Of a DNA stretch of 64,000 nt, positions 5,836 through 48,183 are shown piece by piece. The notes under the pieces were generated by a model. The model saw only the letters and a list, made by a program, of their open reading frames with translations, was not told the origin of the DNA and searched no databases. The DNA is from a virus (Duplodnaviria > Caudoviricetes), in the IMG/VR virus record IMGVR_UViG_3300037312_000330, positions 96,001 to 160,000 of that record. The stretch is one strand, 5' to 3'. The translations under genes and the position numbers were made by a program. Numbering within the stretch: the stretch's first letter is position 1; every line of letters begins with the position of its first letter.

Positions 5836-5870
5836 GGAGTCCTCCAGGTCTCCCCTCTGGGAGGACCTCC
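5836..5870 (+). terminator. hairpin upstream of promoter module 1
   Basis: GGTCTCCC 5847-54 / GGGAGGACC 5859-67. Confidence 0.45.
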
Positions 5871-5872
5871 GT

Positions 5873-5972
5873 TGCCTAATTTTTGTGCAGAAAGTTGCCT
5901 ATTTTTTAGGCAGGCGTACACGGATTCTATGGTACAATAAAGTACGGGCAATCCTGCCCGTGCTAACAACCT
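5873..5972 (+). promoter_or_regulatory. promoter module 1: two 17-bp palindromes, extended -10 TGGTACAAT, leader hairpin
   Basis: TGCCTA-N5-TGTGCA 5873-89; TGCCTA-N5-TAGGCA 5896-5912; TACAAT 5933-38; ACGGGCA/TGCCCGT hairpin; 32 bp identical to 14895-14926. Confidence 0.75.
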
Positions 5973-9899: not shown

Positions 9900-10826
9900 A
9901 TGCGTAAAGGTTATGATCCCATTATTGCCATCGCCAAAGATGGCATGATCGCAGGTGTCGCCCTCGGCTCGGATGCAGTATCCGAGCACGAGTGGGGTAT
10001 CGACGACCTGAAGAGGGCGTTCTGTTCCAAATGGGAATCTTTGGATTCCATGAAGGAAGCAGTGGAGCGGACTGGTGAAGTGCCCGACTTCGATCTCGAA
10101 GAGATGTACAGGATCAACAAGAACCTTGACCATATCTTTGGTCTGGTGGAAGAGGGGTTCTTCACCATCTCTACTGTAAATAACGAGTGGATAAGCCCCA
10201 TCCGCCATCGACTACCGAAAGTGGCCCCTGGAGCAATTCTGCCGGAATTCTCTCGTCGTGAATACGAGAAGTCACACAAGTCCATTGCAACAGAATGGGA
10301 CAAGCGTAATTTCCGCTTCTGCAACGCTGTCTACGGTGACGAGAAACTGATCAAGAAGCTCAAGGCGTTCCACCAACAACTTGTGAACGGGAAGTGTGCG
10401 TTCTTCTCTGTTCACGGTGGCGTCTTCAACGCACGCGAAGGGAAGGTGGCAAGTGGTCTGGTGATAGTGGATACGACACGCCTGACCTACGCACAGGCCA
10501 ATCACTGGCGTGTCATGAACGCTGAACGTCGCGATCTGCTGGAACTCCACAAGCGTTCCAGGCTGGACGTGATACTCGCTAGATTCCGCGATGGTGATCT
10601 GTCCAAGAATGGACACGTGGACGCGGGCTATTTCTGGCCCATGTGGTCTGACAAGAAAACCAAACAGGAAGTTGTCTACGGGTTCAATCCTGGATACCGG
10701 GTGAACGCGGACTACTTTGGTCCGTACACTGAAGGCCAACTCGTCCGGTGGTTCGATCACAACATGAGCTACCGTCTGAAACGGGAAAGTCCATCTCTGG
10801 AGAACAGCCATGTCGAACACTCCTGA
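9900..10826 (+). CDS. hypothetical protein
   Basis: 308-aa ORF abutting previous stop. Confidence 0.85.
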   Translation: MRKGYDPIIAIAKDGMIAGVALGSDAVSEHEWGIDDLKRAFCSKWESLDSMKEAVERTGEVPDFDLEEMYRINKNLDHIFGLVEEGFFTISTVNNEWISPIRHRLPKVAPGAILPEFSRREYEKSHKSIATEWDKRNFRFCNAVYGDEKLIKKLKAFHQQLVNGKCAFFSVHGGVFNAREGKVASGLVIVDTTRLTYAQANHWRVMNAERRDLLELHKRSRLDVILARFRDGDLSKNGHVDAGYFWPMWSDKKTKQEVVYGFNPGYRVNADYFGPYTEGQLVRWFDHNMSYRLKRESPSLENSHVEHS

Positions 10827-12334: not shown

Positions 12335-12389
12335 TCTAGTGCCTTAGTTACCTTATCGAAAAGAACAAGGACAGGACAGAATCGTTAAT

Positions 12390-14886: not shown

Positions 14887-14980
14887 TGCTTAAATTTTGT
14901 GCAGAAAGTTGCCTATTTTTTAGGCAAACAGCCACCCGTTCCATGGTACAATGGTATGCGGGCACTCCCGCCCGCCACAA
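14887..14980 (+). promoter_or_regulatory. promoter module 2: two 17-bp palindromes, extended -10, leader hairpin
   Basis: TGCTTA-N5-TGTGCA 14887-14903; TGCCTA-N5-TAGGCA 14910-26; TACAAT 14947-52; GCGGGC/GCCCGC hairpin. Confidence 0.75.
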
Positions 14981-14999
14981 CCAACGTAAAGGAACACGT

Positions 15000-15398
15000 A
15001 TGGCACACAGCCAAAAGGCCCAACGTGATCAAGAGACCGCGAGGCACCAAGCGGAGTACGACGCCAAGAAGCCCGTGACCATGGACGAGATCCGCGCACT
15101 GCGGCCCGGACAGTCGGTAACCGTCAAATGGTTCTACGAACCCGACGAGGTCTTCCTGGTGTTGGACGTCCGACGTCCGTCCAACAAGAGCAATCCGCCG
15201 AATGCGATCCTCTTGTGGGCTCCGGAAGGGCCGAACTCGCTGACGGACAAACTCTGGATTGCGGTGAACCCCAGATGCAAACCTGCCGGTAGCGCGATGG
15301 AAACCGCTGGACGCATGTGGGGAGGAGCGCCCTTCGCGATCGACAACGGGTTCGATGCCATCATCCGCATCGGCTCCGTCGAAATGCAGTTCAAGTAA
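15000..15398 (+). CDS. hypothetical protein, first gene after promoter module 2
   Basis: ATG 15000 after AAAGGA. Confidence 0.75.
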   Translation: MAHSQKAQRDQETARHQAEYDAKKPVTMDEIRALRPGQSVTVKWFYEPDEVFLVLDVRRPSNKSNPPNAILLWAPEGPNSLTDKLWIAVNPRCKPAGSAMETAGRMWGGAPFAIDNGFDAIIRIGSVEMQFK

Positions 15399-47449: not shown

Positions 47450-47585
47450 TGCCTCGCCAGTAGGCACAAAGCTGCCTATTTTTTAAGCAATCAGGGGCTT
47501 GCCAAGGCAAACGGCATATGGTACAATAATGGTACGGTTGGGCTGAACCCGCGTACCGTAGGCACAGCCATTGCCGTAACAACCT
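47450..47585 (+). promoter_or_regulatory. promoter module 3: two 17-bp palindromes plus sigma70 promoter TTGCCA-17-TACAAT
   Basis: TGCCTC-N5-TAGGCA 47450-66; TGCCTA-N5-TAAGCA 47473-89; -35 47499-504; -10 47522-27; GGTACG/CGTACC leader hairpin. Confidence 0.75.
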
Positions 47586-47634: not shown

Positions 47635-48183
47635 ATGAAAGCGACTGCGAATATCTCCAAGCTCCTGAAGGAACTCGTTGGTGCCGTCAAGGCCTCGGCC
47701 AAGGAAGCGAAGCAAGCGAGCAAGCGCGCCGAAAAGGCTGAAGCACGTCTGGAGAAACTGACCTCCGACAAGCCTGCGAAGGCCAAGAAGGAAAAGGCCG
47801 GAAAGAAGTCCAAGAAGGACAAGGCTGCCAAGAAGGCCGAGAAGGCCGCAGCCAAGAAAGGTAAGAAGGACAAGAAGGCTGCGAAGAAGGAGAAGCAGAA
47901 CAAGAAGGCTGGCAAGAAGGCGGCTGACGAAGACGAAGAGGAAACGGCAGCCCCGGCCAAGAAGTCCAAGAAAGCCAAGAAGGAGAAGTCTGGCAAGAAG
48001 GACAAGAAGGCTGCGAAGAAGGCAGGCAAGAAGTCCAAGAAGGAAGGCAAGAAGAGCAAGGACGAAGGTTCCGGCTCCGAAAAGCCCGCTGGAAAGAAAG
48101 CCGCCGCCAAGAATGGCAAAGGTGGCAAGAAGGACGCCAAGGAAGGTAAGAAGGCTGAGAAGTCTTCGTGGCTGGACGCCTAA
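47635..48183 (+). CDS. histone H1-like Lys/Ala-rich protein
   Basis: 66 of 182 residues Lys (my count); N-terminal amphipathic helix; KKA/KKS/KKD repeats. Confidence 0.75.
   Translation: MKATANISKLLKELVGAVKASAKEAKQASKRAEKAEARLEKLTSDKPAKAKKEKAGKKSKKDKAAKKAEKAAAKKGKKDKKAAKKEKQNKKAGKKAADEDEEETAAPAKKSKKAKKEKSGKKDKKAAKKAGKKSKKEGKKSKDEGSGSEKPAGKKAAAKNGKGGKKDAKEGKKAEKSSWLDA

Follow-up and report, generated by a model that had tools for sequence, protein, structure and literature searches.

Paired Fis/NtrC-type palindromes at four sigma-70-type promoters of a large uncultured phage: candidate sites for a host regulator

Fis bound at position -41 activates transcription at the proP P2 promoter and Fis sites further upstream do so at rrn P1, and Fis bound at about -42 of its own promoter represses. 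Sites for host regulators also occur on phage DNA, such as the Fis sites of lambda and Mu and the PhoB and NtcA boxes of cyanophages, where they serve to sense host physiology or to bend the DNA. Here we address four promoter modules of an uncultured phage (Duplodnaviria; Caudoviricetes; IMG/VR record IMGVR_UViG_3300037312_000330), each of which carries two palindromic boxes upstream of an extended -10 element. Three of them lie in a stretch of 64,000 nt, hereafter the window, which corresponds to genome positions 96,001-160,000. The boxes resemble the autoregulatory sites of dusB-fis and dusB-ntrBC. Autoregulation of dusB-fis by Fis at Pfis is experimentally established (PMC3865300), as is autorepression of dusB-ntrBC by NtrC, which binds at PdusB in Sinorhizobium meliloti (PMC10746234). 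The high-affinity consensus of Fis is GNNYAWWWWWTRNNC (PMC3302801, PMC2816674), i.e. a 15-bp core with G-7/C+7, Y-4/R+4, A-3/T+3 and an A/T centre, while NtrC recognizes TGC-N11-GCA with an A/T-rich centre at activated as well as repressed promoters (PMC10746234). From comparison of these elements with the phage modules, we assign a probability of roughly 0.58 to the reading that the latter are four host-sigma-70 promoters coupled to a dimeric host protein of the Fis/NtrC family (HTH_8), activation being somewhat likelier than repression.

The viral record comprises 248,884 bp with 51% G+C and stems from rhizosphere metagenomes; the terminase is ~35% identical to the terminases of PaBG/Y3/JA11-type jumbo phages. 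Coordinates given below are positions in the window unless marked "genome", the modules are numbered 0 (genome 92,782-92,857, outside the window) and 1 to 3 (in the window), and box centres are counted from predicted starts with TACAAT set as -12 to -7. All four modules are intergenic and consist of two 17-bp palindromes of the type TGCYTA-N5-TRRGCA, which are separated by 6 bp and thus spaced 23 bp centre to centre. A sequence-only reading of the window had reported this arrangement at three loci, which are all borne out, and a scan of the genome added module 0 located ~3.2 kb ahead of the window. Alignment of the four modules yields the order distal box, 6-bp spacer, proximal box, gap and invariant ATGGTACAAT. 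The proximal box reads TGCCTATTTTTTARGCA in this alignment and the distal box TGCYTAAWTTTTRWGCR, except in module 3, where it is TGCCTCGCCAGTAGGCA. Matches to the palindrome pattern with up to 2 mismatches number 7 in the window, compared to 0.91 expected. The extended -10 element TGGTACAAT (TGn plus TACAAT) occurs four times on the + strand of the whole genome, once in each module.

The modules differ in the distance between boxes and core promoter. In modules 1 and 2, the gap from the proximal box to ATGGTACAAT comprises 16 nt and the boxes are centred at -41 (proximal) and -64 (distal). In modules 0 and 3 the gap extends to 26 and 28 nt, respectively, and these longer gaps hold TTGCTC and TTGCCA exactly 17 bp before the -10 element, giving box centres of -51/-74 in the TTGCTC-17-TACAAT promoter of module 0, whose predicted start is near genome 92,864, and -53/-76 in module 3. 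Hence, where a -35 hexamer is present both boxes are displaced upstream by about one helical turn (10 and 12 bp), and the proximal box ends at -43 and -45, wholly upstream of the hexamer. The centres previously given for modules 1 to 3 agree with these values. Modules 1 and 2 indeed lack a -35 hexamer as had been stated, but the earlier description missed their TGn motif; extended -10 elements of this type can function without a -35 hexamer. The proposed class II and class I activator positions hold in part: the centre at -41 fits class II (near -41.5), whereas the remaining centres deviate by 2-3 bp or more from canonical class I positions (near -61.5, -71.5 and so on), as judged from the predicted starts.

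In module 1, the distal box TGCCTAATTTTTGTGCA (5873-5889, centre -64) fits GNNYAWWWWWTRNNC with its 15-bp core and the proximal box TGCCTATTTTTTAGGCA (5896-5912, centre -41) is a perfect palindrome that recurs unchanged at the dusB-fis promoter of Polynucleobacter. They are followed by ATGGTACAAT at 5929-5938 (+ strand; predicted start ~5945). Module 2 comprises the distal box TGCTTAAATTTTGTGCA (14887-14903, centre -64) and again TGCCTATTTTTTAGGCA as proximal box (14910-14926, centre -41), which both fit GNNYAWWWWWTRNNC, ahead of ATGGTACAAT at 14943-14952 (+ strand; predicted start ~14959); the ATG of its first gene is at 15000. In module 3, the proximal box TGCCTATTTTTTAAGCA (47473-47489, centre -53) fits the Fis consensus, whereas the distal box TGCCTCGCCAGTAGGCA (47450-47466, centre -76) preserves the arms and thereby TGC-N11-GCA, but has a GC-rich centre in place of the A/T centre of Fis sites. 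The sigma-70-type promoter TTGCCA (47499-47504)-17-TACAAT (47522-47527) predicted earlier for this module is present at 47499-47527 on the + strand, with 10/12 consensus matches, a TG extension and a predicted start at ~47534.

Thus, seven of the eight phage boxes fit the high-affinity Fis consensus, the exception being the box at 47450-47466, which fails at the centre. These seven are at the same time the sole matches to GNNYAWWWWWTRNNC in the 248,884-bp genome, while Markov shuffles yielded 3.3 matches on average, which were scattered. The NtrC geometry TGC-N11-GCA is found in all eight boxes (one of them counted with its terminal G), which are paired and mostly have an A/T centre. The boxes support the earlier proposal of a dimeric regulator with NtrC/Fis geometry. 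Their A-tract centres lean towards Fis, and the GC-centred distal box of module 3 together with GTGCA arms leans slightly to an NtrC-like reader. A sigma-54 promoter, with GG at -24 and GC at -12 (TGGCAC-N5-TTGC), was considered and rejected: a -24-like TGGTAC exists, but the GC of the -12 element is absent or out of register in 4/4 modules, and the boxes abut the core promoter. The sites known for IHF, CRP/FNR, LexA, CtrA, DnaA, NrdR, TetR-type regulators and lambda CII do not agree with the box in sequence or spacing. A function of the box as RNA or DNA hairpin was likewise dismissed, as the half-sites (TGCCTA, TGCTTA, TGCAC) vary independently without pairing covariation.

Bacterial chromosomes carry the same box as a conserved cis-element. 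The exact 17-mer was found in at least 120 bacterial loci, a total that is near chance expectation, so that only the positions of the matches (dus, uvrC) are informative. Among the 120 matches listed, 11 have the box 29-123 bp from dus and 28, apparently all from alphaproteobacteria (Rhodobacteraceae, Rickettsiales, SAR116 and others), carry it 140-590 bp upstream of uvrC. Further boxes were detected ahead of dnaA, rpsB/map and ruvC. Five genomes with the exact 17-mer (two Rhodobacteraceae, one Polynucleobacter, one Rickettsiales metagenome-assembled genome (MAG) and one Sutterella) contain 3-7 boxes each at up to 2 mismatches versus 0-2 for the control, and 17 of the 20 boxes in the searched bacterial genomes are intergenic. 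Of 121 alphaproteobacteria sampled, 19 contain boxes with perfect arms (TGCCTA-W5-TAGGCA) at a total of 26 sites, compared to no control site; of 101 Burkholderiales, 10 contain them at 14 sites, compared to one control site. Between the box and uvrC, the inspected copies from Rhodobacteraceae and Rickettsiales have a DnaA-box-like GTTATCC(A/G)C.

The arrangement at dus deserves a closer description. In Polynucleobacter, a perfect box at the dus promoter is followed by dus, a gene for an 81-aa HTH_8 protein (Fis) and purH (L354, 647-2017). In seven dusB-fis-purH promoters of the Polynucleobacter type (L135, L195, L225, L226, L228, L238, L244), exactly 19 nt separate the box from the TGCTAAAGT behind it, which places the box centre at -40; phage modules 1 and 2 match this host PdusB layout to within one bp. 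The A5/T5 centre of the box occurs in either orientation in these promoters, as expected for a symmetric dimer. In Sulfitobacter, TGCCTAAATTTTAGGCA is found in the divergent region between ispDF and dus(nifR3)-ntrB, with the NtrC and NtrX genes further on, and in the Rickettsiales MAG a box resides between dus and ispDF. Presence of the box at dusB-fis promoters in betaproteobacteria and at dusB-ntrBC promoters in alphaproteobacteria is what autoregulation by Fis and NtrC, respectively, predicts; its autoregulatory position was checked in these bacteria, not in the phage's own host. Directly downstream of dus, the Rickettsiales MAG (G004:C4:115750-115863) has an open frame of 101 aa that matches HTH_8 strongly and may encode a small Fis-like protein. 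By its label the MAG belongs to the alphaproteobacteria, a class usually said to lack Fis.

The box is also widespread in other viruses. The exact 17-mer TGCCTATTTTTTARGCA was detected in at least 119 IMG/VR contigs, a lower bound, representing 67 nucleotide-unrelated lineages with 26-66% G+C. The 17-mer with its letters read backwards occurred in 9 contigs and a CpG-free palindrome of the same composition and centre in 22, i.e. public viral contigs contain the box at least 5- to 13-fold more often than the controls. A second box is present in 49 of the 119 viral loci, mostly 18-23 bp away and in the same orientation. As judged by eye, viral boxes often stand beside iterons, DnaA-box-like words, a parS site or terminase genes; around them, only a flanking T is conserved, and no -10-like element was found at a fixed distance. 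Individual contigs display further arrangements: four tandem boxes with an 18-20-bp period (L106, 550-625), a canonical parS TGTTTCACGTGAAACA abutting the box (L020, 1-95, and L115, 553-613), and a box with TGCACCGAGTTGGTGCG, a near match to the enteric NtrC consensus, 5 bp behind it (L108). Among cultured phages, a 30-nt query returned only 16-20-nt matches, located in Burkholderia P2-like phages and in Bdellovibrio phage phi1422 next to a few chance matches, and none in phages of enterobacteria or Pseudomonas. In phiE202, a Burkholderia phage, and in 45 similar P2-like phages, a 16/17 match is located between primase and int (L339, 2380-2560) among repeated GCCACGAG-like words resembling Int arm sites; this match may be a site for Fis-type bending of attP or may be due to chance. 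Phage phi1422 has the variant TGCCTATTTTTTAGGCT of the box in the intergenic region of divergent genes, with (GTT)n repeats on both sides (L340, 1940-2050). No publication on the exact 17-mer came up in a literature search.

Whether the reader of the box is encoded by phage or host had been left open by the sequence-only reading. An early dimeric regulator of the phage could switch the promoters on, or later off, and thereby act as a middle-mode switch. As most phage genes lack an assigned function, there is room for an unrecognised DNA-binding protein among them, and the boxes match the geometry of lambda-type operators with their 17-bp sites, 6-bp spacers and 23-bp period. However, a six-frame profile search of the phage genome returned no match to HTH_8, MotA (MotCF) or AsiA at E <= 1. 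Clustering of open reading frames (ORFs) around the box in the 119 viral loci revealed as shared families only terminase, a large portal-like protein and a primase-helicase but no regulator, and a Pfam scan of 150 box-proximal ORFs was topped by the terminase small subunit (4) and HNH (3), again with no common regulator. The single protein of our phage with box-proximal homologues in more than one viral lineage is an HNH endonuclease (three lineages). Conservation of the box at the bacterial dusB-fis, dusB-ntrBC and uvrC loci, its occurrence in 67 unrelated viral lineages without a shared regulator, and a phage without detected HTH_8, MotA or AsiA together argue for a host factor, and we consider a phage-encoded regulator improbable. 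A CI/Cro operator set as in lambda was discarded on similar grounds: the geometry is alike, but no helix-turn-helix gene is shared next to the box in the 67 viral lineages and none was recognised beside the modules. The modules had also been set apart from the T4 MotA system, and rightly so, given that no MotCF or AsiA match was obtained and that position and symmetry of the box differ.

The remaining promoter signals of the phage genome bear on the timing of the modules. Strong sigma-70 consensus promoters are rare in it. The motif YTGTAAAT(A/G) is present in 26 copies, 23 of which are in sense orientation (in the window e.g. at 10175, 18442, 21211, 36704 and 42248), mostly in short gaps ahead of replication-type genes and without a -35 hexamer. 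It probably marks a class of promoters specific to the phage, resembling the T4 late element TATAAATA. TAWTTTGAT, a candidate for a second such class, is likewise an intergenic motif and occurs 15 times, 13 times in sense, ahead of virion genes (in the window at 12386, 47107 and 61641). As the modules are the only promoters of the sigma-70 extended -10 kind in this genome and replication and virion genes carry the two phage-specific motifs, the four modules look like a small separate class of host-polymerase promoters, and these sequence features would fit an early-type timing. This makes the middle-mode system put forward earlier less likely. Three box-free sigma-70-like promoters with 10/12 matches were noticed ahead of the window (genome 82,528; 86,108; 86,219), and the gap-rich region at genome 82-89 kb may be another early region.

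According to the mechanism we propose, a host factor would bind each module as two dimers 23 bp apart and modulate initiation by the host polymerase. In a beta- or gammaproteobacterial host this factor would be Fis, in an alphaproteobacterial one NtrC or a close paralogue. It could activate as Fis does at known class II promoters, by contacting the alpha subunit or region 4 of the polymerase. Whichever the sign, the four gene blocks would follow the growth state (Fis) or the nitrogen state (NtrC) of the host. Binding, transcription starts, early timing and the sign of the effect we infer from the anatomy of the modules and the identity of the box. As for the sign, activation appears somewhat probable to us and repression considerably less so. 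In modules 0 and 3 the boxes are shifted by 10 and 12 bp and are clear of the -35 hexamer, which favours an upstream activator that depends on the face of the helix over simple occlusion.

The same host protein could instead use the boxes as operators that repress the four promoters, in which case the downstream genes would be on mainly in Fis-poor, i.e. slow-growing, or NtrC-inactive hosts. Modules 1 and 2 are near-copies of PdusB with respect to box centre (-41 vs -40), TGn extended -10 and the absence of a -35 hexamer, and autorepression is documented at this promoter type (PMC3865300, PMC10746234). The extended -10 element could moreover supply factor-independent basal activity. In modules 0 and 3, however, the -35 hexamer begins only downstream of both boxes, a layout in which simple occlusion of the polymerase is not expected, and a shift by approximately one turn suggests the face-of-helix dependence that is typical of activators. 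Taken together, we regard repression by the host factor as a rather unlikely account of the four modules.

Several observations weigh against coupling of the modules to an activating host Fis/NtrC-type dimer. The closest analogue of the -41 arrangement, Pfis/PdusB, is an autorepression site, and by this analogy the phage modules might be repressed as well. As a rule, NtrC acts as a distant activator of sigma-54 promoters, and the modules are not of that type. The centre of the distal box of module 3 is GC-rich, and structural work on Fis implies that such a centre would bind Fis poorly. The phage comes from rhizosphere metagenomes, and the choice between Fis and NtrC hinges on its host. A phage protein of undetectable fold that copies the host specificity is a further candidate. 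Finally, the motif scan called for earlier succeeded within the genome, where it led to the fourth module, but not among relatives: five cultured distant jumbo-phage relatives hold boxes at chance level only, and the 80 loci found via a radical-SAM gene show no boxes near that gene beyond chance level. There is thus no phylogenetic footprint of the boxes within the phage lineage.

The modules are framed by hairpins and face gene blocks without known families, which consist mostly of orphan genes. Ahead of module 1, a GC-rich hairpin, GGTCTCCC-CTCT-GGGAGGACC (5847-5867, + strand), closes the upstream gene and is a putative terminator, albeit lacking a T-run; a terminator was also found ahead of module 0. 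The hairpin that had been noted at the predicted start is significant in shuffle tests in modules 1 and 2 but weak in module 3; for module 0, no significant 5' hairpin was obtained. In module 1, the 5' stem-loop (5942-5963, + strand) has 9 bp and a predicted energy of -16.3 kcal/mol (z -4.8; 0/200 shuffles equal) and is followed by TAACAACC (5964-5971). That of module 2 (14958-14975, + strand) has 6 bp and -12.7 kcal/mol (z -3.2; 0/200 shuffles equal) and precedes ACAACC (14977-14982). Module 3 has a composite stem-loop (47531-47584, + strand; z -1.8) followed by TAACAACC at 47577-47584. On the minus strand (5944-5961), the module-1 hairpin and the ACTTTATTGT behind it obtain a terminator-like score, which might reflect a stop for antisense transcription or coincidence. 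The (TA)ACAACC motif, formerly counted as part of the modules, does follow the promoter in modules 1-3, and in these only, but ACAACC(T) occurs in 9 intergenic gaps of the genome versus 2.6 expected and also behind several TGTAAAT motifs, indicating a general intergenic leader motif of this genome rather than a module-specific one. The first gene behind module 3 (47635-48183, + strand) encodes a Lys/Ala-rich, histone-H1-like protein of 182 aa, whose codon-usage score is the highest in the neighbourhood of the four modules and to which a Pfam scan assigned no family. Its promoter is the only one among the modules with a near-consensus -35 hexamer.

This framing invites an explanation without a dedicated protein, according to which the T-tracts would function as UP-like elements or as intrinsic bends of the DNA, and the modules would be paralogous cassettes of promoter and terminator, comparable to the PeSLs of T4-type phages, with repeats that serve mainly for recombinational shuffling of accessory genes. 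Each module indeed lies between a hairpin closing the upstream gene and a 5' hairpin and faces orphan-gene blocks, resembling the cassettes described in PMC4122927, and in modules 0 and 3 a T-run is located near the distal UP subsite. Yet it is the GC arms that are conserved and not the A/T centre, as evident from the distal box of module 3 with its kept arms and GC centre, and it is again the arms that set the enriched 17-mer apart from the control palindrome with the same centre in viral contigs. A role in recombination would in addition be compatible with binding of a factor. Accordingly, an account by DNA structure and shuffling alone is very improbable.

Should the modules indeed be read by a host Fis/NtrC-type protein, a large lytic-type soil phage would sense host physiology directly at four host-polymerase promoters by means of a host autoregulatory box. 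The box would then provide a handle for host prediction, because the host should carry a TGCCTA-type box at PdusB, as well as a handle on the timing of the orphan-gene blocks and the H1-like protein. In a broader perspective, and at slightly less than even odds, TGCCTA-W5-TAGGCA could be a general, hitherto undescribed "handle" by which many uncultured phages of alpha- and betaproteobacteria recruit a host Fis/NtrC-type protein, at promoters and in tandem arrays by origin-like iterons, DnaA boxes, parS and terminase genes; bacteria would use it in a compact regulon (dusB-fis/dusB-ntrBC, uvrC, dnaA, rpsB), and the specificities of Fis and alphaproteobacterial NtrC would constitute a single motif. 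The reading of the four modules would by itself supply a sharply defined Fis/NtrC motif for alpha- and betaproteobacteria, in which such sites are poorly charted. Boxes for host factors on phage DNA are a known kind of mechanism; the new leads are the spread of this box in uncultured phages and the compact bacterial regulon.

Among described systems, the dusB-fis autoregulatory site at Pfis of E. coli and Salmonella shares with the phage modules the 15-bp G-N13-C core, the A/T centre, the position at approximately -40 to -42 and a weak or absent -35 hexamer. Likeness extends to the identical 17-mer in PdusB of Polynucleobacter, where the TGn extended -10 element follows after 19 nt compared to 20 nt in the phage. 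Unlike dusB-fis, the phage has two boxes per promoter, two modules with a -35 hexamer and boxes upstream of it, and orphan genes downstream, and the setting is viral. At rrnB P1 and proP P2, the nucleoid protein Fis likewise binds several sites at -41 or further upstream of a sigma-70-family promoter. Those sites are cellular and degenerate, whereas consensus-perfect sites on a lytic-type jumbo phage are present here, for which activation is predicted. Similarly, NtrC sites at sigma-70 promoters such as S. meliloti PdusB (PMC10746234) agree with the modules in geometry, A/T-rich centre, pairing and the link to dusB-ntrBC, but classical NtrC activates sigma-54 promoters from more than 70 bp upstream, while the phage boxes are promoter-proximal.

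With the MotA/AsiA-dependent middle promoters of T4, the modules have in common the absence of a -35 hexamer and a TGCTT-like word upstream of a sigma-70 -10 element. However, MotA recognizes one monomer site centred at -30, with 12 +/- 1 bp to the -10 element, in contrast to palindromes at -41/-64. PeSL cassettes, which are repeated in hyperplastic regions of T4-type phages (PMC4122927), also combine an early-type sigma-70 promoter and stem-loops that flank orphan-gene blocks. The present phage is not T4-type and has only four copies, and PeSLs are devoid of upstream palindromic factor boxes. Compared to the host-regulator sites of lambda, Mu and cyanophages, finally, the boxes described here are tandem consensus boxes fixed to four extended -10 promoters, and the same box recurs across many uncultured phages of apparently alpha- and betaproteobacterial hosts.

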